A stretch of DNA of 64,000 nt from an uncultured cyanobacterium (GTDB lineage: Bacteria > Cyanobacteriota > Cyanobacteriia > Phormidesmidales > Phormidesmidaceae), in NCBI GenBank assembly GCA_963793265.1, contig CAWBZI010000001.1, positions 704,001 through 768,000 of the forward strand, written 5' to 3'. The notes beneath the pieces were generated by a model. The model was not told the DNA's origin and ran no database searches. It saw only the letters and a program-made list of their open reading frames with translations. Position 1 is the first letter of the stretch. Each line of letters opens with the position of its first letter. Made by a program: the position numbers and the translations under genes. Positions 39,933 to 59,749 of this stretch are shown here, one piece after another.

Positions 39933-40086
39933 GGTGTTAGCGTCTGAGAAGGTTGTTAAGTGATTGAGCAAAAAGATCCACAGGAGGAGTGGAGGGCAAC
40001 AGCCTTGAGATTTGAAATTGAGAAGGCCAATAATTTCAAACGTCAAGGTTGTTGTATTGTTTGTTAGTTCGAGTAAGTCAACTGGT

Positions 40087-43000
40087 CTAATCGACAGTGA
40101 CGCGGAAGCGAATAAAGCCAAAGGCGTCGGTCGGCGTACCAGGGCCAGTTGCGTTAGGGAGCTGATCGGGAGAAGGCGCTAGGTTGACGAGTACGGTGCC
40201 TTCGTTATTAGCGCCTGGGCAAGGCGTAGGCGTCGCATCACCAATAGGAAGAAATTCAGCGCCGTCGCCGTCGGTGTCAGTATCAGAGAGGTTGGTGGTG
40301 TTGCTGTTGGTGAAAAGCACCATGGAGTCGTTGACGTAGGTGGTGCCGTTGGGGATGCGATCGCACAGTTTTACATTCGTAATCGGCGCGTTTCCAGTTG
40401 CCAGGTAGTAAACGGTATATTCCACCTCATCACCGGGCTCTGCAAGCCGATTAGTCGCCCCAGCCAAAAACTTACTCACGCCTGCGCTAGTCTGCCCAGC
40501 AGGCCAGTTAGGATGGTTATCATTATCATCAGTATCGTCATCTACACTATCTGGCAGCGATGTTCCGTTAATCGCCGTAATACGCTTAACAATCGCTAAA
40601 TCCGAGTTTGTGTAGTGGCCGAAATTATTATCAGAATCGGTAATATTTAGTAGCGCACCGAAGTCAGCAGCTTCTAGGTTATCTGTTGTAAAAGTGTCAT
40701 TTTCCGGTGGCAGCGTGGCCGGATCGACATCTAAAACAAACGCACCATTTGAGGCAAAGAGAAAATCATAAGTACCATCTGCTGCCGTATTCTGTGGGAC
40801 TAAAAAGACATCGTTGCCGTCTACTGTGCCATCACCATTGGTATCTCGATAAAGTCTAACTCCAGCGTTCGGCGTACCGGTATCACCTGCGTTGAGCGTG
40901 CCGCTGGTGTCTGGATCAAGAAAAACGGTGCCTGTAATTCGGTTAGGAGGGCCGGTCAAGCAAGCAACGCTTTCATAGTCAGTACCCACAGAGAGCGTGC
41001 TGATTTGGGTGGCTTGTCCTGTTGTCTTATCAACGCTGAAAAAACGGTTCGTGTCGCCTGTTACGGCATAGAACTGACCATCGTTAAAGGCCGTTAAGCC
41101 TTCCATATCACTGGTGCCAAAGGGGCCGATAGCTGTCGTCGATCCATCTGTTGTATTAATGCGAATATAAGTATCTGCGCTGGTGCTACCTGCATTGGCA
41201 ATACCATATAAAAAGCCTGTTTCTGGGTCGAAAGCGATATCGTCAATATCCGCTAATCCAGTCGTCGCATCTGACTGGATTACCAGATAATCTATGCCAG
41301 GGCCAAATGCATCAGCAACTCGATTGCCTGTTACGGGATCGATTTTGATCAATAAATCATCAGGTATACCTTCATTACCCTGGCGCACAGAGCCATAGAG
41401 TTCGCCAGTAAAAGGGTGGAAGGCCAGCCCGTCGATATCGGCAAAGGTTCTGTTGCCCTCGCTGCCGTTACCTGATCCGATAGTGCCCAGGGTGCTGTAG
41501 GCTCCTGTGTTTGTATTCAATATGCCTAGCGTGTTGGCATTAGTCGCGTATAGCGTGTTAGTGATAGGCCAGTAGGCGATCGCCTCAATATTCGGCACTC
41601 CAACCGGGCCAATATTGCTTTCTGCGCCCGAGTTAATGTCAATTGCAACCAGGCGATCGCCCCCATCTGCCACCGAATAACAAATCGTTCCACCCGGCGG
41701 CGGTGTCGTATTCAGCACCGTCACCGCGTCATCTTCATTGTTGGTCAGATCAGGATCGGTAATATCGTTGTTACGAATCGCCTTAGCTGAGTTAGTGATT
41801 TGCCCGGACGCCGAGCTAGAGATAATTCCCGTGACGGTGTAAGTCGCAACCGCCTGATTATTAAGATCTAGCGTGGTGTTGATGTCGTTACCCGTGCCGC
41901 TATCGTCGCCGCAGCTACCGTTACCGCTGGTTATATTGCAGCTCCAGCTTACGTTAGTTAGCGAAGCCGGAATCTGATCTTCAAAGCCAATGCCTGTCTC
42001 ATCACTCGGGCCGTCGTTTGTCACCGTAATTGTGTATTCGAGCGCATCTCCCGGATTCGCGACATCTAAATCAACTTCTTTGTTGACGATCAAATCGGCT
42101 TCTTTGATGACGATGCCGCCCTGCAAAGCCACGTCAGCAGACGGGTAATACACCCAGGTATCGATACCTCTGCGATCGCCAAAATTATTTGTAAACTCAT
42201 GTGCACCCGCCGAGCTATTAATACCTGTAAGCGGGTCGCGATCGGCAGAACCGTTTCCGTAGCAAACAGGATCCGTAACGCCTGCATTTGTGGTCGTTTC
42301 ACCAGACGCACACAGCGAGAAGTCACCACCCAGGTTGCGATCGTCGTAATAAACATTAAAAGGATCTTCATCTTCACTGGTCGGGCCAGCCGGTTGATTA
42401 AGCCGCCTGAGGATAAGACCTCTCGGATTTTGCTCTGCGTCGATCATCGGAAAGTGAGCCTCTCCACCGTACAGATTCACTCGCACGTTATAGGGAATTG
42501 TACTTGGTAGAACAGGCGTTTGATTGCCGTCTAGGCCATCCCAAAACACGCTATTAGCACCGACAACGGCTCTGCCGACAAAGGTGCGGTCATTGCCATT
42601 GCCATAGTCGCCGTCGTTGTTGAGATCTATTGTGATCGAGAAGGCGCTTTGCGTAGGACTGTTGAAACTGAGCGTACCGCCTAGTGGATTAGTACCGGCC
42701 TGGCCAGGCGTGCCTTCAATGCCTGTAAATTCGACACCCGTTGGAATAGGTGGAGGCAGAGGAGGACTCAGCAGCCAGGTAGAACCCGTAGGAGAGTTCG
42801 CAGAACTTGGCATACTTGGATCAGGCAGGTTGATAAACGTTTTGTGGGTGATGTAGATACCCAAATCGGGGTCATTGGGATTTTGAAAGCCGTAGCCAGG
42901 CGGGATTTGCTGGCCAATATTAGCACCCGTCATCTGAAGAGAACGAAAGATAGAGTCGCCAGAAGACTGCTCAAAAAAGCCATTGCGATTGGCAAACAAA

Positions 43001-43701
43001 ATGAAACCGTAAGGATCTAGTCCATTGAGATCAAGATCGTACTGATAGCCTTCTTTAGTAAGAATAAAAAATTGAGAGCTAAGTGACCGGCCGTTGCCAC
43101 CGATATTAAACGCAAAATAATTAGCGTACGTACGGCCTTTTCTTTTTGCTCCGGTGTTAGAACTATCGGCCCTAACCGTTACGTCCCATGCCGAAATGTA
43201 GCTTACGCCATTCGGCTGCGTCCAGTTTGCGGTTCCTGCTGCTACTGCTGGATTCGTACCGTTTGCTTGGTTAGGGCTAACAAAGTCAATTTCCCAAATA
43301 CCTGCTTGACCTGGCCCTATAGTCACCTTGCAAGGCACAAACGTACCGCCAGAGCCGTCACCGGGCCCAGCAATCTCTTGTGCTCGGTTGAGAATTCGTC
43401 CAACGGCACCACAGGTACCAGCATTGTTGTTAGGATTGCGATATCTAATGACGCCATTACCGATGCCAACGGCGCTGGAGCCTAAGTTAATTGTTTCGCC
43501 TTCTTTGGCATATACCTTAATAATTGTTCTTCTTGGAATACCGCCACTCGTGTCATCACGAAATTCCAAGTAAGGTCGATCGCCGCCGCTACTGACAAGA
43601 TCCTGGCTACCTTCTGCGATCGCGCTAGGAGCCGCAAAACTCGCCATACCGCCAAGCAACAAAAACGTACTGGCAATGTTGATGTAGCCTTTATTAATCA
43701 T
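40087..43701 (-). CDS. Large secreted adhesin-like protein: N-terminal domain, FlgD-like Ig, complete DUF11, beta-propeller, SdrD B-like, incomplete C-terminal DUF11
   Basis: AIA-EGS; VFWDGLDGN; ADLIVNK..PGDALEYTITVTNDGP..EDQIP..ITNSA..DP..TNN; IDGLAFHP/IDDIAFDP blades; LAIVKRITAIN..FGFIRFRVTVD*. Confidence 0.87.
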   Translation of the reverse strand: MINKGYINIASTFLLLGGMASFAAPSAIAEGSQDLVSSGGDRPYLEFRDDTSGGIPRRTIIKVYAKEGETINLGSSAVGIGNGVIRYRNPNNNAGTCGAVGRILNRAQEIAGPGDGSGGTFVPCKVTIGPGQAGIWEIDFVSPNQANGTNPAVAAGTANWTQPNGVSYISAWDVTVRADSSNTGAKRKGRTYANYFAFNIGGNGRSLSSQFFILTKEGYQYDLDLNGLDPYGFILFANRNGFFEQSSGDSIFRSLQMTGANIGQQIPPGYGFQNPNDPDLGIYITHKTFINLPDPSMPSSANSPTGSTWLLSPPLPPPIPTGVEFTGIEGTPGQAGTNPLGGTLSFNSPTQSAFSITIDLNNDGDYGNGNDRTFVGRAVVGANSVFWDGLDGNQTPVLPSTIPYNVRVNLYGGEAHFPMIDAEQNPRGLILRRLNQPAGPTSEDEDPFNVYYDDRNLGGDFSLCASGETTTNAGVTDPVCYGNGSADRDPLTGINSSAGAHEFTNNFGDRRGIDTWVYYPSADVALQGGIVIKEADLIVNKEVDLDVANPGDALEYTITVTNDGPSDETGIGFEDQIPASLTNVSWSCNITSGNGSCGDDSGTGNDINTTLDLNNQAVATYTVTGIISSSASGQITNSAKAIRNNDITDPDLTNNEDDAVTVLNTTPPPGGTICYSVADGGDRLVAIDINSGAESNIGPVGVPNIEAIAYWPITNTLYATNANTLGILNTNTGAYSTLGTIGSGNGSEGNRTFADIDGLAFHPFTGELYGSVRQGNEGIPDDLLIKIDPVTGNRVADAFGPGIDYLVIQSDATTGLADIDDIAFDPETGFLYGIANAGSTSADTYIRINTTDGSTTAIGPFGTSDMEGLTAFNDGQFYAVTGDTNRFFSVDKTTGQATQISTLSVGTDYESVACLTGPPNRITGTVFLDPDTSGTLNAGDTGTPNAGVRLYRDTNGDGTVDGNDVFLVPQNTAADGTYDFLFASNGAFVLDVDPATLPPENDTFTTDNLEAADFGALLNITDSDNNFGHYTNSDLAIVKRITAINGTSLPDSVDDDTDDNDNHPNWPAGQTSAGVSKFLAGATNRLAEPGDEVEYTVYYLATGNAPITNVKLCDRIPNGTTYVNDSMVLFTNSNTTNLSDTDTDGDGAEFLPIGDATPTPCPGANNEGTVLVNLAPSPDQLPNATGPGTPTDAFGFIRFRVTVD

Positions 43702-45974: not shown

Positions 45975-48900
45975 TTATAGGTCAGTTGCCGTTGGATAGG
46001 TTTCGTTTGTAGGCATTGCCGAAGAGGTTTCCGAAGAAGTTGCCGCAGAAGTCGTCGAAGAATCTGCTTGAACGCTTTCGTCACCAGACTCTTGAGAAAC
46101 TTGAATAACAGACTCTTCTTGCTGAACAGGTGCAGCAGGCTGTGTGCCAAAGCCATTCAACAAACCGCTGAGCTTAGCCGTCATCCCAAAGTAAAAGCCG
46201 CCCGCGCTCCGATTCTCACCGAAGTCGGTATCGTTAGCGCCGCCGCTATAGCCCGCCGAAACGCGCAGGTCAGGCAGCGGATAGTAGCCGCCTTCAAGCG
46301 AGTAGCCGGTTTCATTAAAGCCACTGCCGCCAATCCAGCGCACTTCGCCCACCGTATCCCAGCGATAGCCCAAGCGATAGGTTGCTCTGGCCTGTGCAAG
46401 CTGTACGGTGCTGCCGCTAGAAAAGCTGTTGTCAGAAACGTTCAGCGAACTGCGGCTGTGGCGTAGCGCATACTTTCCGTATAGCTCCCATCGCCAGTTA
46501 GGCGCATAGATACCTTCAGCCGAAAAGACATGATCCTGCGTTTCCGAATTAGTCCCAGAAAGAGAGTTTGTCGGAATCGAATTAGGGTTCATCCGGTGCT
46601 CGTAGCGCAACAGCCCGTTAAAGCGGTCGTCTTTAGGATTGCGGTAGGCCATACCCAGCTTAAGAATGCTAGTGGTGCCCAAACCTGTGATTCGTTGATT
46701 AGCTGCACGCGCCGCTCGATAATCTCCTAATAGCGTTATGGAAGGCGTGACTCGACCCAGTGCAGAGAGCGTGAATACTGTGTTAGACGTGCCCCGATTG
46801 GAGCTGCGGTGCTCGAAGCGAGTACTGGCCTGAAAATCTGGATTGTCGGTGTAAGAAAGGCCCACGCTGTAACTTTCGCCGCCTGCCAAGCCCAACGCCG
46901 CCGCTCTGTTGCCAGTCGCGAACGGTTGAGCAAACTGCGTACTCGCAGCGGTTTCATTACCTAGCGTAGAGAAGACTTTCTCATAACCCAAATCCAAATC
47001 TAAGCCAGGCGCTAAGTTAATGCCCTGCTCTAAGCCAATCGTGCCGCCAATCTGACGACCGTCTACCGTAGAGAATCGACCGCGAATGGTGGTATCTGAA
47101 GCGAAAGTATGATCTCCAGTGACATCGATACTGGTTGCGTTGCCGCGGCTGTTGCCGCCACCGCCATAAAAGACTTGGTTAGCGCTGATGTTGAGCCAGG
47201 GCATTACTTCCCAGTTCAGACCAATCAGCGTACGGCTAGGGTAGATAGGATCTACGTTAGAAGAGAGGTTAAGTTCGTTTTGGGCGACTAGACTAAGCTT
47301 GCGAGTGATGGGCGTGGTTAAGCGAGTTCTGAGCTGGTCAGAAGAGATTGATCGGTCGCTGTTGATGCGGTCTGTGCGATCGCGATGCAGCCAGTCTATT
47401 TCTGCCGTCGCTCGGCCCAATCGCTGACTTAACCCTATTGAATAGGTCGTCAGCGAATTATCTAGAGGTGCACCCGGCTCGGTATTTAGGCCCAACAACA
47501 GATCAGAGACATCGGTGATGACCCGAGGCGCATTACCTGTATTATCTTCATGATCGTAGCGGGCTCTGAGTGAAGTATTGCGCCCCAAACGTCCTGTCAC
47601 CTGAGCGCCATAGCGGGTTTGCCCTGGCACAAAGCTCGTCGTCGCAGTATTCGTAAAGCCCGCATCCGTAGAGCGGTAATAGGCTCGACCGCTAAGCGCC
47701 GTGCCTAAGCTACCGTCAAACGAAATCCGATAGCCCGTGCCGTTGACCTCATCGGTACCCGAAAAATCGCTTGAAGACTGCGCAATTTCAGCAATCACCT
47801 GAGCATTCTGGCCTAAGGCAATGCGAGCGTCCGCGCCATAAAGCGTAAAGTCGCGAGTGCCCTGGTCTTCGGTAAAGTAGCTCGCCCCCACCCAAGACTC
47901 TACGCCCTGCTGCTGATTGAGGTTGTATTGCAAGCGTCCCGCTAAGATGTCGGTGTCGTCACCGTCTTCGTGCTGGTAAGTTGCAACAATCCGACGAACC
48001 AACAACAGTCCATAATCATCAACAGCGGTGCGAGTCACCGGATCGTTGAAGAGAATCGTGCCTCGGTCGTAGTCAATCTCGTAGTCAGCACCACGATAGA
48101 GAGGCTTGCGCTCTAACACCGTACCGGGCCGTTCGAGTTCTTCAAGTTCTATATAGACATTTTCACTACCGGGCAACAGATTGCGCTCAGATGTAAAGTA
48201 GAAGCCGCTCGTACCGTCAGGCACAATCGTATCTCTTTGGAAGCCTTCTACGTTGTTAGCGTATAGGCCCGTAACGGCTAAGTTGCCGAAGTTGTAGTTA
48301 GATTTGAAGCCGTGAAGCTGGCGGCTTGTGGCGGTAAAAAGCTGAGAAGAGGTAGCAAATTCAGACGTGCTGAAGTCGCCCCACATGGCGTAGTCAATAG
48401 CTCTATCGTTGCTGGGCGAGTTGCGCTCTAGTCGTAAGTAAACGCTGTCGAGAGAAGGCGCGAGCGTATCGGTGTAAGAGTCGTCGCCGTAGGTTGTATA
48501 GCTGCTGCAATCGCTGCCAGTGCCCGATCGAAAGAGCGTTGTTTCGCCACGACAGTTTTCGTTGAGGGTGCGATCGCTGTTATAAGCCCCCGTATAAAGC
48601 CACTCGCCCAAATTACCCGTTGCAAACACCGCCGCGTCTACATCAAACTCATAGCTGTTGTCGCCATCTTCAGGTAAAAAGTCTCGGAAGCTGTCGTAAA
48701 AGTCGGTGCCGCGTGCGCCCACTCGGATGTCAATTACACCCGAAATTAAGCTAGGTCTTTGCGGGGTTTCAAACTGCACCTGGCTAAAGGCATCGAACCC
48801 GTTAGCATTTGCCTGAATCTGCACCAGATGAGATTCGAGCGAAGATTGCAGCTCAGCAGCGAACTCACCGCGCCGAATTTCTACCTGATAGCCCGGCATA

Positions 48901-50471
48901 TCTGGGTCTTGATCAGCACCGATAAACTGACCGTCGCTCGTGCGCAGCGTGGCCACCGAATCCCAGCGAGAGATGTTGCCAATCTCATCGACGAGCTGGC
49001 CGCGAATCGTCGCCGTAGAGCGACCGTCAGAAGGAATCGACTGGGGAGAGAGCAACACCAGTTTTTCAGGCAAGCCTCGCACCGTCAGCGGCAAGCTTTG
49101 GAGAACGTCACCCGTTTCTGTTGAAATAACTTCTAGAACGTTCTCACCTGACACCAGGGGAACGCCGTACCAGGTTTGCGTACGAAGCTGAGTCACTGGG
49201 TCGGTTTCTGTTCTACCCACTAAGCTCGAATCAACCACATGGCCGTTCGTCAGCAGAGCGATATTTGCGCCAGTCGGGAAGCGCAGCACAACAGAAGTGG
49301 CCGGAATATCCAGGAAAGCGCCTGCTTCAGGGCTTAAAAACTCAATGTCACTGGCGTCTGCTGAGACGGCAATTTCATCACCAGTCGCTAAGTCAGCAGG
49401 CGTAATTGATATCTGTTGAATACCGTTAATATCGTAGCTAGCAACGCCCGGTGTGAACGTAGAGTCGATGATGGCAATATCGTCGCTATCAGCTTCTATC
49501 AGCTCGCGTGGCGTGAGCGAAATCCAGGCAGCGGGACGTTTAGCAGCCTCACGTCTTGGTAGGTTGACAGCGAGGCGAGGCGCGTTTGGATTCTCTTGTA
49601 TCTGGCCGTTGTCGTCCACCATGAGACGACGCGCTAGCCAGGGCGTTTTCTTTTCGTCATCGTCTTCAGCCTCTAGGCCAAGCGCAATCCGAAGCTCATC
49701 CCGTTTTTCTTCCGCTTCGTCTGTCGCTTCAGGCGCGAGGGCAATTTGAGGCGCGAGAGTTTGTAGAGGTGCGATCGCTTCTACAGCTTCCGTTTCAATT
49801 GACGTCTCAAAACCCGGCAGTGTCGTTGCTAACCATGGAGTTTTCTTTTGCTCAGCCTGCGGGGCTTCAGGCGTAGCGATCGCAATCAAAGGCGCAATCG
49901 TATTAAAGTCTTGCTTCTCTGGGGGGGGGGCGATCACGATCAAAGGCGATTCCTTAAGTAAAAGCGCCTGATTTTCTGTTTCTTCCTCTTCCTCTTCTTC
50001 AATCCCTTCCTCAGGAGAGAGAGATAATAGTGCTGGTTCAGTGTTTGCTGCTGTGAGGTCTACTGTAGGCTCATTGCTGGCTTCTGAAGAATCTACAGCA
50101 ATGAGGGGGAAGTCGTTTTGAGCAGATTGAGCGATCACACTCTCTTCTGCAAACGCTTGGGCCAGCAAAGGAGCCGTCGGTTCATAATTATCGGCAACCA
50201 CCGTCTCCGACTCAATCCAGGGAACATCCCACTGTACCGCGCGAGTTTTTAGCTCAACGCCAGGCGCGATCGCCTCTAAAGACTCAGCCTCATCAACAGG
50301 ATCTATCGGGGTGTCTAACCCCTGTACGGCCTCAGCAGATTGAGCATTAGCAGCGCTAGGCAGCAGCCCCAAACTCGCTAGCACACTTACAGCAAGCCCA
50401 GACTTCAGACCAGCAGGACAGTTTGAGAGCAGTCTAAAGAGCAACAGTTTATCTTTTGAAGTTTTAGACAT
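45975..50471 (-). CDS. Large outer-membrane beta-barrel protein (putative translocon/usher)
   Basis: Signal peptide; acidic disordered N-terminus; invasin-like Ig (PSDGRSTATI..LVDE.GN); GADYEIDYDRGTILF; long C-terminal run of amphipathic strands with aromatic ends. Confidence 0.75.
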   Translation of the reverse strand: MSKTSKDKLLLFRLLSNCPAGLKSGLAVSVLASLGLLPSAANAQSAEAVQGLDTPIDPVDEAESLEAIAPGVELKTRAVQWDVPWIESETVVADNYEPTAPLLAQAFAEESVIAQSAQNDFPLIAVDSSEASNEPTVDLTAANTEPALLSLSPEEGIEEEEEEETENQALLLKESPLIVIAPPPEKQDFNTIAPLIAIATPEAPQAEQKKTPWLATTLPGFETSIETEAVEAIAPLQTLAPQIALAPEATDEAEEKRDELRIALGLEAEDDDEKKTPWLARRLMVDDNGQIQENPNAPRLAVNLPRREAAKRPAAWISLTPRELIEADSDDIAIIDSTFTPGVASYDINGIQQISITPADLATGDEIAVSADASDIEFLSPEAGAFLDIPATSVVLRFPTGANIALLTNGHVVDSSLVGRTETDPVTQLRTQTWYGVPLVSGENVLEVISTETGDVLQSLPLTVRGLPEKLVLLSPQSIPSDGRSTATIRGQLVDEIGNISRWDSVATLRTSDGQFIGADQDPDMPGYQVEIRRGEFAAELQSSLESHLVQIQANANGFDAFSQVQFETPQRPSLISGVIDIRVGARGTDFYDSFRDFLPEDGDNSYEFDVDAAVFATGNLGEWLYTGAYNSDRTLNENCRGETTLFRSGTGSDCSSYTTYGDDSYTDTLAPSLDSVYLRLERNSPSNDRAIDYAMWGDFSTSEFATSSQLFTATSRQLHGFKSNYNFGNLAVTGLYANNVEGFQRDTIVPDGTSGFYFTSERNLLPGSENVYIELEELERPGTVLERKPLYRGADYEIDYDRGTILFNDPVTRTAVDDYGLLLVRRIVATYQHEDGDDTDILAGRLQYNLNQQQGVESWVGASYFTEDQGTRDFTLYGADARIALGQNAQVIAEIAQSSSDFSGTDEVNGTGYRISFDGSLGTALSGRAYYRSTDAGFTNTATTSFVPGQTRYGAQVTGRLGRNTSLRARYDHEDNTGNAPRVITDVSDLLLGLNTEPGAPLDNSLTTYSIGLSQRLGRATAEIDWLHRDRTDRINSDRSISSDQLRTRLTTPITRKLSLVAQNELNLSSNVDPIYPSRTLIGLNWEVMPWLNISANQVFYGGGGNSRGNATSIDVTGDHTFASDTTIRGRFSTVDGRQIGGTIGLEQGINLAPGLDLDLGYEKVFSTLGNETAASTQFAQPFATGNRAAALGLAGGESYSVGLSYTDNPDFQASTRFEHRSSNRGTSNTVFTLSALGRVTPSITLLGDYRAARAANQRITGLGTTSILKLGMAYRNPKDDRFNGLLRYEHRMNPNSIPTNSLSGTNSETQDHVFSAEGIYAPNWRWELYGKYALRHSRSSLNVSDNSFSSGSTVQLAQARATYRLGYRWDTVGEVRWIGGSGFNETGYSLEGGYYPLPDLRVSAGYSGGANDTDFGENRSAGGFYFGMTAKLSGLLNGFGTQPAAPVQQEESVIQVSQESGDESVQADSSTTSAATSSETSSAMPTNETYPTATDL
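49921..49930 (+). repeat. G10 homopolymer (C10 on the coding strand) within the barrel gene
   Basis: Ten consecutive G; encodes APPP, currently in frame. Confidence 0.85.
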
Positions 50472-50473
50472 GA

Positions 50474-51976
50474 TTAGTTTTGCTCCTCCTGGAAAGTGGG
50501 CGTTACCCCAAAGTTCATGCGCACGAGCCCGCCGGGAGCAAGATTAACCAGTCGAGAATGACTGTTGCGTTCGTTAAAGCGAAGGTTTGGGGCGAGCGTG
50601 TAGCCCGGTAAGCTACTCAGATCAATAGTGCCGGTACGCTGTCCAGGCAGCATTTTTTGAACAGAATAAAGGCCGTCCGCATCAGTAACCACTCGGTTAC
50701 CGTCATCTAAGAATATGACCGCGTTTGGAATACCCGCCTCACCCGGCTGCTGCTCGCCATCAAAGTTTTTATCTTCAAAAACGCGACCGATGAGCGTACC
50801 GCAGTCAGAGAGAATACCAGGGTCAAGCGTTAGTTGATGAGAGCTTGGCCCGTCTTGAACCCTAAAGCCGCTATCTGTTCTTTCGGCAGTAACCTCAGCG
50901 CTGTTACGGCCCGACCCTCTTAGCGCATCTGGCGTCAGCCGCACACCGTAGATAATATCTAGCGTACGATCAGCAGGCAGCACATCAGGCACCCTAAAGC
51001 TTACTGTTCGATTATTGATATCAGCAACAACCGGAACAACATCACCGTCTACTTGGCCCGTCACTGACTCTGGCAACAGCTCGAAACCAAGCGGTAGCGT
51101 ATCTACTGCAACAATTGAATCGATACCAGCTCTAGCCAAGTTTTGAATATTTAACCGATAGAGAACAATATCTCCAGGCTGAGCCGCAGAGCGGTCGGCT
51201 GATTTGGTGATTCTGACCTGCTCAGATTCGCAAATAACAGAGCTTAAACCAAATTCAAAGAAGGTTAAGAACTGAACGGCTGCGTTGCGAACTTCAACCC
51301 GGCGCGTGAGTTCGGTAGCACCATCAACTGAGATAGGCTGACCGTCTAAAGATGTCGCTCGGTAGCTAAGTGTTGCTGTATTATTTGCAGTATCTTCTGC
51401 AATGCCTTGCAGTTCAATTCGAATACGTCTCTCGCCAAAAGAAGAGTCATCTGGTGGATTGATAACCAGGATATATTGAGCACCTGCGTCGGTCTGGCTT
51501 AGCCCAGCGTTAATTGGGCTAGTGAGCTGAACAGACGAATCGAATAAGAAATTGTAACGACCTTCATTCGGTAAGAAGGGAAAGGGATTAACGTTGCTCT
51601 CGTTGGGTGGAATGCTGTCGGTACCGCTAGTAGGCGTAAGAGATACCAAATTTCCTAAATCTAAACCGCTAGCATCGGGTTCGTAGAGCGCACTCGAAAA
51701 GCCAACATAGCTAGGAAGCGGTTCGCCATTGCAGCCTAAAAGATCGCCGCCTGGGTCGATTAATACTGGGTCTAGGCCAGTGATAATTTGGTTAGAGGTA
51801 ATGCCAACGGGGCCGTTGCCAGTGGTGTAGGTAGCCGTCGCTTCGTTAAGAATATCAGGTAGCTGCGCGTAGGCACCGGTGATTGGGTGGCTCAAGAGGC
51901 CAACTAAAACGAGGGCCATCAAACGCTGCCAGCGGCGGGAGCGTCGAAACCATTTAGGTGTGGAAAAAATTGGCAT
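50474..51976 (-). CDS. Secreted DUF11 + SdrD B-like protein
   Basis: Signal peptide; ILNEATATY..TSN; VRITKSADRS.AQPGDIVLY..VDTLP..GRNSA; GRVFEDKNFDGEQQPGE.GI; 2-nt gap to the barrel gene. Confidence 0.85.
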   Translation of the reverse strand: MPIFSTPKWFRRSRRWQRLMALVLVGLLSHPITGAYAQLPDILNEATATYTTGNGPVGITSNQIITGLDPVLIDPGGDLLGCNGEPLPSYVGFSSALYEPDASGLDLGNLVSLTPTSGTDSIPPNESNVNPFPFLPNEGRYNFLFDSSVQLTSPINAGLSQTDAGAQYILVINPPDDSSFGERRIRIELQGIAEDTANNTATLSYRATSLDGQPISVDGATELTRRVEVRNAAVQFLTFFEFGLSSVICESEQVRITKSADRSAAQPGDIVLYRLNIQNLARAGIDSIVAVDTLPLGFELLPESVTGQVDGDVVPVVADINNRTVSFRVPDVLPADRTLDIIYGVRLTPDALRGSGRNSAEVTAERTDSGFRVQDGPSSHQLTLDPGILSDCGTLIGRVFEDKNFDGEQQPGEAGIPNAVIFLDDGNRVVTDADGLYSVQKMLPGQRTGTIDLSSLPGYTLAPNLRFNERNSHSRLVNLAPGGLVRMNFGVTPTFQEEQN

Positions 51977-52131
51977 TGTATCTCGTTCAAATGGCTTTTT
52001 AAGGGCTCAGATATTTGTGATAGAAATAGTGTTTAGGAGGCTCCTATGGCGCTGAAGGTTACTGTGACCTGTCAGGGAAGGAAATATTGAGCAAGAATAT
52101 TGAATAGTTTGATTAGAAAAAGAGAAAGAGA

Positions 52132-52170
52132 AGGGCGATCGCACTCCTTTAAAAGAACTGCGATCGCCCT
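52132..52170 (-). terminator. Intrinsic terminator built from two HIP1 sites, after the first two locus genes
   Basis: AGGGCGATCGCA / TGCGATCGCCCT inverted repeat followed on the minus strand by a U/C-rich tract. Confidence 0.7.
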
Positions 52171-52185
52171 ATTCATCTACCGTGA

Positions 52186-52749
52186 CTACTTAACCGTCAC
52201 TTCATGAGAAACGTTAACAGCAACAGAGCTACCCAGCGCTTCGTTAAAGTTCCATTTCACGTGAGTGTAAGCAGAAGCAGGCGCAGGCTGCATCTCAACA
52301 GTGCCATCAGGCAAAGTAACTTCGACCATAGGCTCAGCTACAAAAGTCGCACCACCGTCGATGCTGTAAGTCGCATCAGCCGCAGTATTACCCTTCTCAG
52401 AACCAATGACATAAGTCATCGCAGCAGGAATAGGCTGAGTAATCACGAGATTTTCAGCAGGCAGTTCGCCAGCGTTAGAAGAAACGACCGCGTAGCGTAG
52501 CTTATCACCAGGCTGTACAGCCGCTTCGCCCTCTAGCTTTTGCCATTCAGCTTTCTCGGTACCGTCAGCATCGACGACAGTCATCTCTTTTTCAACGCCC
52601 ATTTCGAGCTTTACTTCAGGGCGAGTGAGGCGCTGTGCGATCGCCGCGCCCGCTTCTTGAATGCTCGCAAACACAGGTGTGCTCACTGCAAAAGGCGCAG
52701 AGGCCACCAAAGCTGCAACACCCAAACCAAACATGAACTTACGTTTCAT
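52186..52749 (-). CDS. Small secreted single-domain DUF11-like protein
   Basis: Signal peptide; VQPGDKLRY..NAG..AENLVITQPIPAAMTYV..YSIDGG..YTHVKW..VSHEVTVK*. Confidence 0.88.
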   Translation of the reverse strand: MKRKFMFGLGVAALVASAPFAVSTPVFASIQEAGAAIAQRLTRPEVKLEMGVEKEMTVVDADGTEKAEWQKLEGEAAVQPGDKLRYAVVSSNAGELPAENLVITQPIPAAMTYVIGSEKGNTAADATYSIDGGATFVAEPMVEVTLPDGTVEMQPAPASAYTHVKWNFNEALGSSVAVNVSHEVTVK

Positions 52750-52869
52750 AATTTATTGAACCTTATAGAAAGTGTGACTGTGAATCTTTTGAAAGCAACA
52801 AATCAAATCGATTGAGAGAAGCCAGGCACAAGTTCTTTTAGCGCGCCCAGCTTCAGCTCATATCATCGA

Positions 52870-55365
52870 TTAGTTAACAGAACGACGAATAACGAAGGTA
52901 CCCGATGCGCCCGGTGCAACAGAAGGCACTTCGTTTTCATACTTCTCAGCAGGCGTGCCATCAACAGGATCGGTTGGGCTAGTTGCCGCAGGCGTAGTAT
53001 CAGCGCTGGTTGAGAAGTAGCGGATTTCGCCGTTATCAGCCGTCGCACCAGAGCGGTGGCTAGTAAACTCAGCCCAGTTGTTAGTCCCTGCGTTACCGTC
53101 CTCAAGAATTAGGAAGTCGTTAGCGGTGAGCGTAACGCTGCCTGCACCTGTTGCAGACTGAGAGATGTTCTGGTAAGTGAGACGGTACTCAATGGTTTCA
53201 CCCGGCGCAGCATTTGCAGTAGGTGTTGCAGTGAATGCTTCGCGAACAGAGCCATCAGCAGCCAGAATTTGAGCTTCCTTCATCAGCATCATGAAGCCGG
53301 TGTATACGCGGTCGATGGTGATGTTGTTAGTTGTCTCACCTGTGTAGCCAGGCGATACGACAGGATCGTCGTCAGGGAAGGCAACGATAGGAATCGCGAC
53401 GTCTTCTAGCTGAGTAACGCCGTCGGGCAGGTCTACTTCAACGGTGTAGTCAACAGAATTACCTGCGGCGACATCGCCAACGTTAACAGGCGCATCAGGC
53501 GTTGTGAACGTTGTACCGTCGTAAGTGTATACGGCGGTGTTAGTGCCATCGCTGATAGTAACAATTGTGCCGACAGGAATATCGCCATCAACACCATACG
53601 CACCAGGCTGACCACCCGCAGCTTCAGCTTCAGTAGGCGACAGTGGCTCGATAGTGGTTTCAGCAATAAAGCCAATGCCAGCAGGGTTACTCACCGTGTT
53701 GTTGAAGGTAACCGCATCAGGGTCAAACGGCGTGGCAGGGTCTAAACCAGCCGGAACAGGTGTAGACAAGTTGGTGAAGTCGTCGTTGTCGTTGGTTGGG
53801 CCAATGGCATTAGGCGCACCGTCTGGGCCAGTAAGAATATCGTCAGTCGTTGGCGTAATCGAAACAACGTTGAGTTCACCGTCGTCGCCTGTACCTGAGT
53901 TGTCGTTGTTGTTGTCAACCAGGCTTGGATCATCAGGCTGGTTGTCGCCGTCGCCATCAGTTTCAGGTGCAATACCGTCATCTGTGCCAGGTACGTAATC
54001 GCTACCGTCAGCGGCAGGAGGATTACCTGCGTCGTCGTAGTTGTTAGGATTGGCGTCACCTGATTCATCGTAGATAATCTGAGGGTCAGGATCGGTGTCG
54101 CCAGCGGTTTGACCAAAGACCTGTGCGATGTTTTCGATGGTACCGCCCGTTTCAGGCAAGCCGCTGGTAACCACTGTGAAGGTTAGACCAGTGACCGTAG
54201 AGCCTACGTTGAGCGTACCAGCATTAACAAAACCAATGCGAGTAACTGTGCTCAAGTCAGTAGGCTGCGCAGTTTGCCATGCAAGCGTTAGCGGGTCAGA
54301 CCCTGCGTCCGCACCAGCCGGATCAACAGAATAGACAGGCGACCAACCATTAGGCAGGTTACTGCCTACAGAAGATAGGGTTGTCTGTGCTGGAATAGCA
54401 TCAGAAACCAGAATGCGATTCGCTGTAGCACCGTCTAGGGTAATGTCAGTGCCATCAAGTGCGGCTGCATTGAAGAGGCCAGCAGGGTCTAAATCTTCTA
54501 CACGCACGCCTAAGTCATAGGCGATAGTGTCATCGGTCGGATCGGCAGGAACACCAGCGTTAGCAATGCTAGACGTTTTGAGAACAGTCGCCAAAGCGAG
54601 GGCGTCGTCAGAACCGGCAAAGATAAGAGAGCTGTTGTCTTGTGCCTCACGCTCACCGTTTTCAGGTGCTTCAGGGCCAACATTCTCAGTGCGAACATCG
54701 TCAAGATTAGCGCCGCCGTCATCGTTATCTGACTGGTTTTGCTCTTCATCGACGCCTTCAACCGTGGGGTTGTCGGTGGTGTTACCTAGCTCGACTACTA
54801 TCAAATCGCCTGCAACAGTGCCAGCAGCAGGCGTACCTGTCACTCTTACTCTAAAGCTTTCATCTGGGTCGATTGGATCTCCACCCAAGCCAACAATAGT
54901 ACCGCCTTCTGCAGGAACCGTCCCAATCAAGACACCGTCTGAGTCAAAGACTTGTACAGGGTCAGTATCAGAAGGTGTGAAGTTGTCAGTTCTAATATTG
55001 TCAATGCCAGGAACGAAGACATCGGTTACTGCATTACCAATGTTAGTCACTTCAAAGTCATAAAAGAGGGTATCACCCGCTTCGACCGCGCCGCCATCTT
55101 CATCAATAGGAGGCTGAGCGCTTACGGTCAAGCCTGCAATTTCAGCAACTTTGATGACCACTGTATTAGAAGTGGTATCGAAGTCATTACCGTTACCGTC
55201 GTTGTAGGTCGCGGTTGCGGTGTTGCTGATGTCCGTTCCGGCATCAGTGCCTTCCGCCACAACAGCGCCGACCATATTGAACACGCCAGCAACTGCTAGA
55301 GTAGCAGCGAGAAGAGGCTTGTGAGCCTGCCAGCGAAATTTTTTCTGTTGTACTGTTTTTGCCAT
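52870..55365 (-). CDS. Secreted Asp/Thr/Gly-rich DUF11-family protein, putative major fibre subunit
   Basis: ATG 55365 (MAKTVQQKK..), signal peptide, EGTDAGTDISNTATATY..SNTVVIKV; several Ig-like domains; LMKEA..PGETIEYRLTYQN..SGTFVIRRSVN*. Confidence 0.87.
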   Translation of the reverse strand: MAKTVQQKKFRWQAHKPLLAATLAVAGVFNMVGAVVAEGTDAGTDISNTATATYNDGNGNDFDTTSNTVVIKVAEIAGLTVSAQPPIDEDGGAVEAGDTLFYDFEVTNIGNAVTDVFVPGIDNIRTDNFTPSDTDPVQVFDSDGVLIGTVPAEGGTIVGLGGDPIDPDESFRVRVTGTPAAGTVAGDLIVVELGNTTDNPTVEGVDEEQNQSDNDDGGANLDDVRTENVGPEAPENGEREAQDNSSLIFAGSDDALALATVLKTSSIANAGVPADPTDDTIAYDLGVRVEDLDPAGLFNAAALDGTDITLDGATANRILVSDAIPAQTTLSSVGSNLPNGWSPVYSVDPAGADAGSDPLTLAWQTAQPTDLSTVTRIGFVNAGTLNVGSTVTGLTFTVVTSGLPETGGTIENIAQVFGQTAGDTDPDPQIIYDESGDANPNNYDDAGNPPAADGSDYVPGTDDGIAPETDGDGDNQPDDPSLVDNNNDNSGTGDDGELNVVSITPTTDDILTGPDGAPNAIGPTNDNDDFTNLSTPVPAGLDPATPFDPDAVTFNNTVSNPAGIGFIAETTIEPLSPTEAEAAGGQPGAYGVDGDIPVGTIVTISDGTNTAVYTYDGTTFTTPDAPVNVGDVAAGNSVDYTVEVDLPDGVTQLEDVAIPIVAFPDDDPVVSPGYTGETTNNITIDRVYTGFMMLMKEAQILAADGSVREAFTATPTANAAPGETIEYRLTYQNISQSATGAGSVTLTANDFLILEDGNAGTNNWAEFTSHRSGATADNGEIRYFSTSADTTPAATSPTDPVDGTPAEKYENEVPSVAPGASGTFVIRRSVN

Positions 55366-55875
55366 TATTGTGATAGCTAAATTTTCAAGCAGAGTAGGTT
55401 GACCAAACGAGAATTTGTAAACTTCACTGATGATGAGCATCCGCTGTTGACGCCGATCCAAGGGGCTGAGGTGTTAAAACCTCCGGCCTTTATCGAGCCT
55501 TTGTTCAACTTAGACATTTAACGAAAGTCGGAACGCACCTGGATGACCGAAGGCTGCCGACTTGTTTCAACGTAAAGCTCATCTTTATAAAGTCTTTTCT
55601 TAGAAACTTGCCAGTTTCCTCGATAGGTTTGTGTCTTCGGGCAGATGTCAACCAACGAAGGTTGATAGCTTTTGACTGACCAGGCTTATGCTGCCCCTGC
55701 CTTTTGCTTCTCCGGTAGGGCGAATTACTGAAATATCAGAAAATCTTGGTTTGAACATACGGACAGTAGTTTTACCGAATGTAGAGGAATAGCTTCATAA
55801 GAGAGGAATAGAGCCGTATTCGGGTGAAACGAGTCTCCGTAAGTAAAAAGATAAATTTTTGCTAAACAAGATAAA

Positions 55876-55946: not shown

Positions 55947-57539
55947 TTAATCCGGTATTTCTAAGGATGGCAAAGTAATCACGTAGCGATATCCTGTGGC
56001 CTCAGATCCTTGTACAGCCGCCTTACCATGGTGAATCTCGGTGAGGTGCTGGCTGATTAGCAGGCCGAGTTCTTGTCTAGAAGCGTCTACTTTTTGGGCG
56101 ATCGCTACTGCAGGCGACGTTGCGCTAGTGTCTTTGTCAAATTCATCATGAGACATTGCAAAATCAGGATGAATCGTGGCCGAACGAGCCGCCAACTGTT
56201 GAGCATCTAGCTGATAGGAAGAGGTGAAAGAATTGCTTTTTCCCCAGGCGATAACAGCCTGTGGTAAGTCTTCACCCAGCCACGGATTAGAAACCCAGAG
56301 TGCCAGGCTAATACTGTCTTCCTTGCGAGAAATGTGCAGCCGAATCGTGCTGCCCGCAGTAGACATTTTGATAATGCTAAAGACAAGGTGATAGATCAGT
56401 TGCTTAATCACACGCCTGTCCAGGCTCCACATGCGAGATCCCGGTTCAACAGTGAGCTTGATTTGAAGATCTTGCTGTTTGGCTAGCGTGCGCAAAGCTG
56501 CGATCGCCTGCTGCGCGATCATCTCCATATCAACCGAAGCTAGGGCTAGCTCATAGCCGTCTTCTTTCAAATCGCCCACTTCAACAATCTCATCAACCAT
56601 CGACAGTAGCTGCTGAGAACTTTTGACAACAATATTAGCGTACTCCTTTTGCTTTGCGCTCAGCGGGCCATAGATCTCTCGGCCCAGCATATTCGCCATA
56701 CCCGTAATCGAAGTTAGCGGATTGCGCAAATCTTGCGTAAGCTGCACCACCAAATCGAAGCGCACCTGATTGATTTTAGCTAGCAGCGACTCTTCAGCCG
56801 AAATTATCTGTCCGACCGACTGAAGCGGATGCCTGCCTGCCTGCAGTTCAGTCATGACGTGCCGCTTCTCAAACTCGCTCACACACCAGCGCGCACTTAG
56901 CTCTAAGAAAGCAACTTCCTGCTGAGTAAACTCATGCGGCAACAGATCCATTATCGCCAGCGTACCAATACAACAGCCATCTGCAACAATAGGCACACCT
57001 AAATAAGACTGAATCCCGTACTGCTGAACCAACAAACTACGCGAGAAAGCAGGATGAGCCGTCGCATCGTTTAGCATGAATGTTTTGCCACTATCAAGTA
57101 CATGCGTGCAAAAAGATTCTTCGCGCGGCAAGCAACGAGCCGAAGCGAGCTGATTCATCAAGCCTAAGCTAGAAAGGCCAACAACAGATTTGAATCGCTG
57201 CGTGTCAGCATCAATCACGCTCAAGATACAAATAGGCATCGCCAACAGTCGCGATACCATTTGCACGGCCTCATCAAAAACAGGCACCGACTCTGAACCC
57301 ATCAGGCCCAAACGAGAGAGCGCTTGGGTGCGATTTTGATCGCGCTGCGCAGGAGAAAGACCTTCTAAAAGGCAGGAGAGCTGCGTTTGCATCTGTATAG
57401 GAGAGTTATTGGCCTTTTTTTGTTGCGTATTGGCCTGTTGCGTAGTCCTCTGTTGCGTAGCCCTCTGTTCCGTAGCCTTAGAAGTGCCGTAAATCATGCG
57501 TGGTGCATTATGTCTAATAAATTTAGTTGAATTCATCAT
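55947..57539 (-). CDS. GAF-domain sensor histidine-kinase-like protein with degenerate catalytic motifs
   Basis: GAF (ESFCTHV..SYLGVPI..IGTLAIMD); HisKA-like LTQDLRNPLTSITG; degenerate HATPase. Confidence 0.85.
   Translation of the reverse strand: MMNSTKFIRHNAPRMIYGTSKATEQRATQQRTTQQANTQQKKANNSPIQMQTQLSCLLEGLSPAQRDQNRTQALSRLGLMGSESVPVFDEAVQMVSRLLAMPICILSVIDADTQRFKSVVGLSSLGLMNQLASARCLPREESFCTHVLDSGKTFMLNDATAHPAFSRSLLVQQYGIQSYLGVPIVADGCCIGTLAIMDLLPHEFTQQEVAFLELSARWCVSEFEKRHVMTELQAGRHPLQSVGQIISAEESLLAKINQVRFDLVVQLTQDLRNPLTSITGMANMLGREIYGPLSAKQKEYANIVVKSSQQLLSMVDEIVEVGDLKEDGYELALASVDMEMIAQQAIAALRTLAKQQDLQIKLTVEPGSRMWSLDRRVIKQLIYHLVFSIIKMSTAGSTIRLHISRKEDSISLALWVSNPWLGEDLPQAVIAWGKSNSFTSSYQLDAQQLAARSATIHPDFAMSHDEFDKDTSATSPAVAIAQKVDASRQELGLLISQHLTEIHHGKAAVQGSEATGYRYVITLPSLEIPD
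57421..57480. repeat. Four imperfect 15-bp tandem units in the 5' part of the GAF gene
   Basis: TGTTGCGTA-like unit x4, encoding ATEQR/ATQQR/TTQQA/NTQQ. Confidence 0.7.
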
Positions 57540-57673: not shown

Positions 57674-59749
57674 ATGCAATCTGCTATTCCGATAGGGACT
57701 GTGCTCCAAAATCACTACAAAATTGTCCAACTGTTGGGACAAGGTGGCTTTGGCCGAACCTATCTAGCAGAGGATCAGGGGCGCTTTAACGAACGCTGCG
57801 CGATTAAAGAGTTTGTGCCGATTCAGGGAGAGGATCGGTTTTCAGACAAGGCCACTCAGCTTTTTCAGCGAGAAGCTGCTGTGCTGTATCAAATTAGCCA
57901 TCCGCAAATTCCGAAGTTTAGAGCAACGTTTGAAGAAGAAGAAAGACTGTTCTTAGTACAAGACTACGTGCAGGGGCCTACCTATCATGAAGTTTTGAGA
58001 CAGCGCCGAGAGCAGGGTCGGACATTTTCTGAAACCGAAGTCAGACAGTTTTTGCAGCAGATGCTGCCGGTGCTAGCACATATTCACGCCAAAGGCATCA
58101 TTCACCGAGACATTAGCCCCGACAATATTATTCTGCGTCAGGACGATAGCCTGCCGGTGCTGATTGATTTTGGCGTGGTGAAAGAAGTGGTGACTCGAAT
58201 GCAGCTAGACGGGGTGGTGTCACACGCGACGACGGTAGGGAAAGCAGGCTACGCGCCCAGCGAGCAAATTCAAACGGGCAGAGCCTACCCCAGCAGCGAC
58301 CTCTATGCGCTGGCCGTCACCGCCGTGGTGATGCTCACTGGCAAAGAGCCGCAAATGCTGTTTGACGATGTGAATGCCGTTTGGACGTGGCAGTCATCGG
58401 CATCGGTAAGCCCTCAGCTTGCGACAGTATTAAACAAGGCGCTGAGCTTTAGGCCGGGCGATCGCTACCAGTCGGTTAGAGAAATGGCGATCGCACTTCG
58501 AGGCGGCAGTCCCGCTCCCAATCCCGGTCAAAATCCTGCCCAAAACGCCCCCGATGGACTCACTGGCAGCATGACTGGCGCAATTCCTAGCAGACCCGTC
58601 CCGGTCAGCTCGACGCCGCCAATGTCGCAAATGAAAACGGTGGCCGTCGGTCGGCCTAATCCTCAAATGAATCCACAGGCGCTAGGCGGTAACCCCACCG
58701 TTAATAGACCGACTACCGTTGGCCAATCGGGCGGCCAATCGGGCGGACAGTCGGGCAGAGGCGCAAAACAGCCGCCGCCAATCGTCATGCCTTCAGAACG
58801 GGAGCGCTCCTCGTTTTTAGAGAATCCTTTGGCGGTAGGAGGTTTAGCCGTTGGGCTTGCAGCGATCGCAGGACTCGCTGGCTACGGCGTCGTCCAAACC
58901 CTAGACACCGCCGTCACGCCCGAACCTTCTATTACCTCACTCCCACCACTCGGCAGCGTCGAAACCCCAACACCTACCCCAACGCCTATCCAGTCTTCGC
59001 CCAAGCCAGTAGAGTACGAGCAGCAGCCGCTAGATCTCATTCCAGGATCGACCAAAATTGTCGAAGGTAACATGCGTCAGGGCGACAAGGTGACCTATCC
59101 TTTGCGTGCTGAGGCAGGCCAGATTCTCAGCGTAGAACAGACCGTAGAAGATGTCAGGCTAACCGTCTTGGGGCCAGACGGCGATCCGATCAATCGTCGG
59201 GCTCAGAACGTGTTTGAGTGGGAAGGCGAGATCGAAGAGTCGGGTGACTATCGCGTGCAGCTCAGCCCTGTGCGAAGCCGAGATGTCAAGAGTAGCGACT
59301 ACCGCCTCTCCGTCAGACTGAGCGATCCAGTCCCAGTTGAACCACCCGATCCGGTTCCAGAAAGGCCGACAGTACCGACTGAGCCGACAGTACCGACTGA
59401 GCCCACGATACCGATCGAGCCGCAAGTACAGTCTCAGCGCGTTTTGTTCCCCAGCGGATCGGAGGGTGTGCTGGTTGCGAACAGCGTCGGGCCAGGTGTG
59501 ATTCGCCGGTATGTTGTGAACGCTCAAGAAGGCCAGTTTTTGTCGGCACGAGTGACAGACACCGATGGCGGCAGAGTTGACTTTGATGTGCTGCTGCCGG
59601 GCGGTGAAATGGTGGCTGATGCCAGCAGATTGACTTCTTGGCAGGGGCTATTGCCGGTTGGGGGCGACTATATTATTGACGTGCAGTCTGCGCAGCCTGC
59701 TGAGTTTACGCTAGAGATTGAGGCGCGAGCGGCGTTGCCAATAGAGTAG
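57674..59749 (+). CDS. Membrane Ser/Thr protein kinase (Pkn2 type) with two extracytoplasmic PPC-like beta domains
   Basis: LGQGGFG, AIKE, HRDISPDN, DFG, GYAPSEQ, SDLYAL; TM; Pro-rich linkers. Confidence 0.93.
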   Translation: MQSAIPIGTVLQNHYKIVQLLGQGGFGRTYLAEDQGRFNERCAIKEFVPIQGEDRFSDKATQLFQREAAVLYQISHPQIPKFRATFEEEERLFLVQDYVQGPTYHEVLRQRREQGRTFSETEVRQFLQQMLPVLAHIHAKGIIHRDISPDNIILRQDDSLPVLIDFGVVKEVVTRMQLDGVVSHATTVGKAGYAPSEQIQTGRAYPSSDLYALAVTAVVMLTGKEPQMLFDDVNAVWTWQSSASVSPQLATVLNKALSFRPGDRYQSVREMAIALRGGSPAPNPGQNPAQNAPDGLTGSMTGAIPSRPVPVSSTPPMSQMKTVAVGRPNPQMNPQALGGNPTVNRPTTVGQSGGQSGGQSGRGAKQPPPIVMPSERERSSFLENPLAVGGLAVGLAAIAGLAGYGVVQTLDTAVTPEPSITSLPPLGSVETPTPTPTPIQSSPKPVEYEQQPLDLIPGSTKIVEGNMRQGDKVTYPLRAEAGQILSVEQTVEDVRLTVLGPDGDPINRRAQNVFEWEGEIEESGDYRVQLSPVRSRDVKSSDYRLSVRLSDPVPVEPPDPVPERPTVPTEPTVPTEPTIPIEPQVQSQRVLFPSGSEGVLVANSVGPGVIRRYVVNAQEGQFLSARVTDTDGGRVDFDVLLPGGEMVADASRLTSWQGLLPVGGDYIIDVQSAQPAEFTLEIEARAALPIE

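Follow-up and report, generated by a model that had tools for sequence, protein, structure and literature searches.

B187, a truncated DUF11-type protein of a cyanobacterial operon, is a putative non-cross-linking receptor for the donor hairpin of its neighbour A863

B187 is a 187-residue protein encoded in a 64,000-nucleotide (nt) stretch of DNA from an uncultured cyanobacterium of the Phormidesmidaceae (assembly GCA_963793265.1, contig CAWBZI010000001.1, positions 704,001 to 768,000); this whole stretch is referred to as the window. B187 is a member of the CLIPPER/DUF11 superfamily that lacks strands 8 and 9 of the fold, and an orphan two-strand hairpin, the sequence counterpart of these strands, is found at the mature N-terminus of A863, the putative shaft protein encoded beside it. 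We propose that B187 is a putative receptor that would bind this donor hairpin without cross-linking it, either as a holdase/chaperone or as an exchangeable cap, and put the probability of this reading at about 0.42. The gene had first been singled out, from the sequence letters alone, as encoding an acceptor-shaped protein without cross-linking residues and a candidate periplasmic chaperone (the original prediction). That prediction is partly supported: its acceptor-shaped, non-cross-linking part is borne out by the truncation, by paralogy with an acceptor domain of A863 and by the exchange of Glu for Gln at the position of the catalytic acid, while the step from acceptor to a periplasmic chaperone preventing premature polymerisation is one that we infer.

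Results

The following features of B187 are used below (positions are those of the window; aa, amino acids).

52186..52749, minus strand: B187 coding sequence, 187 aa, stop included (list of open reading frames, ORFs)
52666..52749, minus strand: Sec-type signal peptide, residues 1-28 (MKRK, hydrophobic core, TPVFA/S with the slash at the cleavage point), judged by eye
52621..52665, minus strand: mature N-terminal segment, residues 29-43, amphipathic and moderately conserved, a low-confidence helix in the model
52189..52620, minus strand: CLIPPER/DUF11-type β-sandwich, residues 44-187, strands 1-7 plus two insertions (about 60-75 and 130-160), from profile matches, structure prediction and structural alignment
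52588..52590, minus strand: codon of K54, counterpart of the strand-1 isopeptide Lys, from its hhalign pairing with the invariant K9 of the A863 C-terminal domain
52435..52437, minus strand: codon (CAG) of Q105, at the catalytic-acid position, from its hhalign pairing with the invariant E68 of the same domain

The sequence of B187 matches TIGR01451 (DUF11-type repeat) at 34.7 bits, above the cut-off of 24, and falls just below the cut-off of Pfam DUF11 (PF01345; 24.1 against 24.6 bits, residues 75-126 only). A canonical DUF11 hidden Markov model (HMM) of 137 positions was built from 2392 repeat matches in 110 proteins of >1000 aa, taken from an exhaustive profile search. B187 enters this model at position 13 and leaves it at 97/98; the final 36 residues of 33/37 members of the B187 family run from HMM position 71 to 98, where the protein stops, the E-values being individually weak (best 5.3e-5). 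The canonical repeat extends ~39 positions beyond this end, through the Asn strand ("...itNtAtv...") and then the last strand. Since strands 8 and 9 are absent, B187 has no cross-linking Asn in cis, and it is not a complete nine-strand CLIPPER domain.

The AlphaFold2 (AF2) model of B187 has a mean predicted local distance difference test (pLDDT) score of 79, with values of about 90 for residues 43-187 and below 50 at residues 1-34 and 36-42. Ten strands are formed in residues 43-187 without a partner, three of them within the insertions. Alignment of the model to the CLIPPER domain 9IFR with VIA-align gave a Z of 8.1, which is moderate similarity according to that program's own guidance (Z near 8), and a root-mean-square deviation of 2.2 over 91 aligned residues. 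The alignment covers residues 18-109 only of the 9IFR chain, versus 18-140 for the complete first domain of A863. The best VIA-align matches are CnaA-like isopeptide domains (Antigen I/II, PrgB, BcpA, EbpB and RrgB) together with one AP-4 mu4 adaptor domain. Foldseek gave no match of the model to the PDB at E <= 0.001, and the family profile gave only chance-level matches to PDB sequences (best E 0.081).

The CLIPPER domain 9IFR is a nine-strand sandwich in which Lys715 on the first strand and Asn806 on the penultimate strand form an intramolecular bond with Asp748 as the catalyst (available text of PMC12617251). B187 resembles CLIPPER/DUF11 domains in its sequence match, its CnaA-like β-sandwich and the core-facing Lys of strand 1, and differs in the loss of strands 8-9 with the Asn, in the Gln in place of the acid, in its two insertions and in being a stand-alone protein, not part of a tandem stalk. 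A two-strand insertion at residues 141-155 (PMVEVTLPDGTVEMQ) is family-specific and highly conserved, and the stretch 140-157 contains the most invariant residues of B187 (P140, V144, G149, P155, A156 and P157).

The expectation of a single DUF11-like domain that ends at the acceptor strand (the C-terminus reads ...VSHEVTVK) is upheld by the TIGR01451 match, the HMM end point and the coverage of 9IFR, and so is that of a protein without a donor of its own: genome-wide, an HMM of the donor hairpin matches only A863 and the ORFs G366 and J885, and not B187. A candidate internal hairpin at residues 123-139 was rejected; hhalign paired these with the first hairpin strand over 17 columns with a probability of 9%, taken as mere strand-turn resemblance.

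B187 is present as one copy in its own genome. A word-indexed search returned 133 homologues of similar length at E <= 0.001, and the source names given, among them Acaryochloris, Moorena and Leptolyngbya, are all cyanobacterial. The exhaustive profile search with B187 returned thousands of DUF11 repeat proteins; its full-length matches are all stand-alone proteins of ~180-217 aa, and in the size range of 329-2000 aa no fused or longer form reached E <= 1e-10, which is weak evidence. In the signal peptide P25, V26 and A28 are invariant or almost so across the family alignment, and by eye there is no lipobox Cys. The N-terminal segment has the family consensus xLQxAGxAIVQ, and AF2 places a helix at residues 26-41. 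In the ESM Atlas, two of the nearest small DUF11-like clusters (189 and 178 aa) have Pseudomonadota as their commonest phylum, counted over the few members with a record. The literature on DUF11/TIGR01451, DUF7925, isopeptide and donor-strand pili, and cyanobacteria yielded no paper on the A863-B187-C500-D1498 operon.

The partner genes of this operon and their relevant parts are listed here.

52870..55461, minus strand: A863, a variable putative shaft protein with DUF7925 in the middle (ORF list, Pfam, synteny)
55138..55233, minus strand: orphan two-strand hairpin at the mature N-terminus of A863, residues 77-108 (ISNTATATY...SNTVVIKV), sequence counterpart of CLIPPER strands 8-9
52873..53304, minus strand: C-terminal acceptor domain of A863, residues 720-863, paralogue of B187, ending after strand 7 (invariant Lys/Glu, hhalign)
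50474..51976, minus strand: C500, with an N-terminal hairpin (NEATATY...), a complete DUF11 domain with Lys/Asp/Asn, and an SdrD_B-like domain (Pfam, HMM)
45975..50471, minus strand: D1498, a putative outer-membrane β-barrel protein, the most conserved part of the operon (matches of the orthologue family)

The C-terminal domain of A863 is the closest relative of B187 that was found (hhalign probability 82%, E 1.1e-5, 56 columns). The two share the truncation after strand 7, an inserted hairpin after strand 1 and a Lys in the identical column. In the A863 domain both K9 and E68 are invariant in 32/32 sequences, and the Lys at the ninth position is found in 58/58 orthologues. In the B187 family the counterpart of this Lys, K54, is present in 147/158 members, whereas the counterpart of the Glu, position 105, is Gln, its isosteric amide, in 158/158. 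The A863 domain differs also in ending a long protein that carries a donor hairpin and in being more variable, with a mean column identity of 34% versus 66% for B187.

The Gln at the acidic position had been noted in the original prediction, and its alignment with the invariant Glu of the paralogue confirms that reading. The first strand had also been said to carry no Lys; this is contradicted by K54, which ends the core-facing register V46-L48-M50-V52-K54 and aligns with the invariant Lys of the paralogue. The expected systematic loss of both residues from the family is accordingly seen for the acid and not for the Lys. Two of the motifs with which position 105 had been compared, VDTLP (500-aa protein) and EDQIP (1204-aa protein), do not belong to acceptors, as the DUF11 domains that contain them (HMM 3-123 and 2-132, respectively) are complete and include an Asn strand; the proper comparator is LILEDG in the C-terminal domain of A863. 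In terms of the Lys-Asp-Asn triad, B187 has kept the Lys, has Gln for the acid and has no Asn strand in cis, and the catalytic acid beside the reactive Lys that marks a split isopeptide catcher is missing. This pattern matches a site that may have been kept for its shape and not for its chemistry.

Nine of the 11 family members without K54 also differ at E143/E152, compared with 32 of the 147 with K54. The association may be plain divergence, or a hint that the insertion 141-155 lies near the Lys; it is not independent evidence because the members without K54 are the most divergent.

For A863, the TTG start given by the ORF tool is probably too far upstream, as orthologues start with MAKT..., which corresponds to residue 33. 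Residues 66-100 match positions 95-129 of the canonical DUF11 HMM (independent E-value 3.5e-6), the part of the repeat that follows the end of B187. In the hairpin alignment I12, N14, A18, S32 and N33 are invariant in 34/34 sequences, and the hairpin is much better conserved than the remainder of A863. An AF2 model of residues 67-294 shows the hairpin as β strands (pLDDT 79-86), and it lies outside domain 1 in 49/50 structural alignments, the lone exception being with a tandem two-domain adhesin. The hairpin of C500 is more variable (N, A and Y are invariant in 61 sequences), and C500 has no open acceptor. The C-terminal 872 aa of D1498 belong to a family in which 16/27 orthologues match DUF2490 and single orthologues match Porin_4 and OMP_b-brl; the profile of this barrel gave only chance-level matches to PDB sequences. 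The inventory of the core operon, as read from sequence, would fit together as two donors, the N-termini of A863 and C500, and two acceptors, the C-terminus of A863 (Lys/Glu) and B187 (Lys/Gln).

The operon is conserved as a unit. At 80 loci found via B187, a homologue of A863 was present in 75, of C500 in 71 and of D1498 in 69, in identical order, and the missing neighbours are mostly due to contig ends. In an even sample of the phylum (301 genomes), B187 was found in 35 genomes, or ~1/8, the C-terminal domain of A863 in 36 and both in 34, and the D1498 barrel in 42. Eight D loci were inspected at which B187 is absent from the genome or from that position, and 8/8 lack A863 too; what they have is a short gene resembling C together with D and, in some cases, E. 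B187 therefore tracks A863 and not the pore.

At these loci (L109-L116, in G247, G047, G251, G083, G038, G089 and G173) the C-like frame is 259-374 aa from stop to stop and corresponds only to the half of C500 with the DUF11 and SdrD_B domains; at L113 it has a hairpin-like N-terminus, and at L116 a J885/I956-like gene lies next to it. A smaller C-D-E module serving other substrates is suggested by these loci. Acceptors of the A863 C-terminal type also end two giant frames of 2711 aa (G023:C1:1825475-1825942) and 2451 aa (G213:C1:2431808-2432272), and neither genome gave a B187 or D-barrel match in the searches of the genome sample.

In its rate of evolution B187 resembles the machinery and not A863. 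A comparison of pairwise distances over 40 loci gave correlations of r 0.87 between B187 and the D barrel and r 0.83 between B187 and the rest of C500, against only 0.20-0.50 between the three parts of A863 and the D barrel.

Two RNA hairpins flank the gene.

52113..52170, minus strand: terminator-like stem-loop followed by a U-rich tract, 16 nt past the B187 stop; minimum free energy (MFE) -33.8 kcal/mol, z -4.97, 0/200 shuffles as stable
52818..52854, minus strand: stem-loop just past A863, in the 120-nt spacer ahead of B187; the fold of 52745-52875 has MFE -35.1 and z -3.12

The stem after B187 (12 bp; 52132-52170) consists of two inverted HIP1 palindromes, GCGATCGC, and was missed by a scan for consensus terminators, its loop being above the limit of the scan. 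A stem of HIP1 palindromes likewise follows B187 orthologues at several loci, for instance L001, L016, L022 and L029. When the most stable 50-nt hairpin was taken from the first 90 nt after each gene across orthologous loci, the median was -20.9 kcal/mol for B187 (n=77) and -20.0 for A863 (n=65), against -8.3 for D1498 (n=62), -9.6 for E714 (n=38) and -12.9 for coding controls (n=64). The median spacer is 274 nt between B and C versus 110 nt between A and B.

Codon usage was compared with 15 phycobiliprotein and photosystem gene segments of the same genome, with a paralogue cluster on contig C7 excluded. The codon adaptation index (CAI) of B187 is 0.792 (bootstrap 0.752-0.830), a value matched by 2/2401 random windows of 187 codons; those of A863, C500 and D1498 are 0.735 (99.2nd percentile), 0.612 and 0.654, respectively. 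B187 shows signs of being a high-output gene in this genome.

Discussion

The proposed role rests on a CLIPPER domain that would be split within the operon, with strands 8-9 on the N-terminus of A863 and a strand 1-7 acceptor on its C-terminus. B187 would accept the N-terminal hairpin of A863 and thereby complete its own fold. As the acid is absent, no Lys-Asn bond would form, and the hairpin is therefore proposed to be held reversibly. B187 could then act as a stoichiometric holdase or exchangeable cap, keeping the reactive hairpin off the acceptors of A863 before assembly. The assembly site would be the outer-membrane protein D1498, where transfer of the hairpin to a Glu-bearing acceptor may become irreversible. 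The acceptor, non-cross-linking reading is strengthened by the paralogy with its Glu-to-Gln change, by the coupling to A863, by the finding that neither the PapD_N nor the Usher family has a match in this 98.97%-complete genome, and by the signs of high expression. A stoichiometric, reversible partner is favoured because the site has kept its shape without its chemistry, because conservation is machinery-like and because the gene shares with the shaft gene a position ahead of the RNA hairpins; a permanent tip present once per fibre fits these three features less well.

A fuller version of this scheme, which we regard as doubtful, is a natural tag-and-catcher fibre. In it, the N-terminal hairpin of each A863 would complete the C-terminal domain of the previous subunit and be locked there by a spontaneous Lys-Asn bond, and B187 would be a strand-accepting "dead catcher" chaperone that masks the hairpin in the periplasm and releases it at the pore. 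The irreversible bond made at the outer-membrane pore could provide a driving force for assembly, which is missing in the periplasm.

SpyCatcher E77Q, in which the catalytic Glu is replaced by Gln, binds the SpyTag strand and cannot ligate it. B187 would share with it a split isopeptide domain with Gln for Glu, although the engineered protein is of the CnaB type, takes a single-strand tag and derives from a Lys-Asp system, whereas B187 is natural and of the CnaA/CLIPPER type, would take a two-strand hairpin to a would-be Lys-Asn site, and has had its Gln fixed by evolution.

To our knowledge, the known chaperones of donor-strand fibres donate strands. The PapD/FimC chaperones consist of two Ig-like domains, and the open groove of the subunit receives a strand from them (available text of PMC9715654), and ElrE is a Gram-positive example of strand donation (available text of bioRxiv 10.64898/2026.10.17.759780). 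B187 is not a chaperone of the PapD type. It would resemble PapD/FimC in doing the identical job in a diderm periplasm and in being encoded in a fibre operon beside an outer-membrane assembly protein; it differs in having a single domain with no PapD_N or PapD_C, and it would accept strands, a polarity opposite to that given for PapD/FimC in the same text.

By analogy, B187 appears functionally closest to the donor-less terminal subunits of donor-strand fibres. It has an incomplete fold without a donor and is encoded with a donor-bearing main subunit and an outer-membrane protein. Like the pilin domain of FimH and the cap Saci_0405 of the archaeal thread, it has one complementing element only and its gene lies beside that of the main subunit. 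FimH tips, however, also include an adhesin domain, and in Saci_0405 a donor is present and the acceptor is missing (available text of PMC9715654), whereas B187 is a bare acceptor with a disabled cross-linking site, apparently strongly expressed in this genome. A further fibre, the tubular pilus of Microcystis, has a pilin described as a unique fold (available text of PMC12397347).

Several points weigh against a reversible receptor. The insertion 141-155 could occupy the strand 8-9 site in cis. Capping the donor leaves the open acceptor of A863 unstabilised, which is the problem that classical chaperones address, and the retention of K54 in 93% of members is more than a pure holdase would require. 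Neighbours of this kind in donor-strand fibres are usually interpreted as caps (available text of PMC9715654). Ranked against 42-43 background ORFs in each of two distant genomes (G147 and G225), the CAI of B187 lies at only the 52nd and 86th percentile and that of A863 at the 55th and 44th. High CAI was accordingly rejected as a conserved sign of abundance, being high only in the genome of the window, and since it was not reproduced in G147 and G225 the codon argument is confined to this genome. In a mirror-tree comparison over the 40 loci, B187 and the A863 hairpin show a partial r of -0.03 once the D-barrel signal is removed, a value that is uninformative because the A863 hairpin hardly varies.

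The first of these points leads to a self-sufficient Ig-like domain, in which the insertions 60-75 and 130-160 would complete the sandwich in cis, no hairpin would be bound and B187 would serve as an adaptor to D1498 or in a coat or matrix. B187 would then be an ordinary small DUF11 protein. The confident AF2 fold of residues 43-187 alone is in keeping with this, as are the concentration of the most invariant residues in the 140-157 insertion, the loose association of K54 with E143/E152 and the existence of many DUF11 domains without the isopeptide triad (available text of PMC12617251). It would, however, be a coincidence that exactly strands 8-9 are missing from B187 and yet are orphaned on both flanking proteins, and the end domain of A863, which is equally truncated, keeps its invariant Lys and Glu without an Asn strand in cis. 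Nor can the confidence of AF2 in an incomplete domain be taken as evidence of completeness. We consider the self-sufficient domain to be a rather weak candidate, though a real one.

A permanent end cap differs from the proposed exchangeable partner in that B187 would remain bound to the donor hairpin left free on the first (distal) A863, with C500 closing the other end at the outer-membrane protein. B187 would then correspond formally to the donor-less tip subunit of chaperone-usher pili. The possession of an acceptor and no donor, the way in which the inventory of two donors and two acceptors would close, and the single copy of B187 in 34/35 carrier genomes are all as such a cap would have them. 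The invariant Gln where the paralogue has Glu points instead to selection against a covalent link, which is odd for a permanent cap. The top codon adaptation, a signal absent from the two other genomes, and the hairpin-flanked place beside the shaft gene are unexpected for a protein present once per fibre, and the evolutionary rate of B187 is that of machinery, not that of the exposed, fast-changing A863. On balance we think a permanent cap unlikely.

Major pilin genes of pap and fim operons are often small, strongly expressed and followed by a terminator-like hairpin. That B187 is itself the major polymerising subunit, with its mature N-terminal segment (residues 29-45) as the donor and A863 as an accessory adhesin, is nonetheless highly improbable: the small size, apparently strong expression in this genome, terminator-like hairpin after the gene and moderate conservation of the segment agree with it, but the segment is helical and not alternating β (pLDDT <50), is unlike the hairpin found by the HMM in A863, G366 and J885, and is no substitute for the missing piece, which is a two-strand hairpin of ~30 residues and not a single strand.

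If the receptor reading is correct, B187 would be the first assembly factor of a donor-strand fibre that works by accepting strands, and nature's equivalent of the non-reactive SpyCatcher obtained by engineering. Such a factor would point towards a covalent fibre that Gram-negative-type cells assemble independently of sortase, and would explain how polymerisation in the periplasm is avoided. The pairing of reactive and non-reactive acceptors with hairpins might also offer parts for protein ligation.

Surrounding genes

A second set of donor and acceptor genes lies at 32369-43701 on the minus strand, and other genes adjoin the two sets.

32369-35026, minus strand: J885, with an N-terminal hairpin (HMM 93-124) and another type of C-terminal acceptor (LVKRITA...LCDRIP...FGFIRFRVxVD, stop), from the HMM
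35078-37948, minus strand: I956, a J885-type acceptor without a hairpin, with a large N-terminal part (HMM, families)
38099-39055, minus strand: 318-aa ORF with GEVED and a CDRIP-type acceptor (LCDLVP), from the ORF list
39021-40121, minus strand: G366, a 366-aa ORF with an N-terminal hairpin (hairpin HMM)
40087-43701, minus strand: F1204, a J885-type acceptor without a hairpin, with a large N-terminal part (HMM, families)
28638-32264, minus strand: 1208-aa protein with an NTPase-like middle and many WD40-type repeats, adjoining the fibre island (by eye)
55947-57539, minus strand: GAF-histidine kinase, upstream of the operon
57674-59749, plus strand: Ser/Thr protein kinase-like gene, upstream of the operon (N-terminal motif by eye)

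The N-terminal parts of I956 and F1204 contain GEVED, DUF11 and DUF6923, and both proteins look like tip adhesins. The 366-aa and 318-aa ORFs overlap by 35 nt and together look like a single J885-like gene that a frameshift or a sequencing error has divided. Kinase genes with matching N-terminal sequences are found at the equivalent place in L004, L013 and L041, and the upstream kinases are possible regulators of the operon. Outside the window, contig C7 of the same genome carries at about 93-119 kb the extra Photo_RC, PsaA/PsaB and phycobiliprotein paralogues that were left out of the codon reference, presumably a cluster resembling that for far-red-light photoacclimation.

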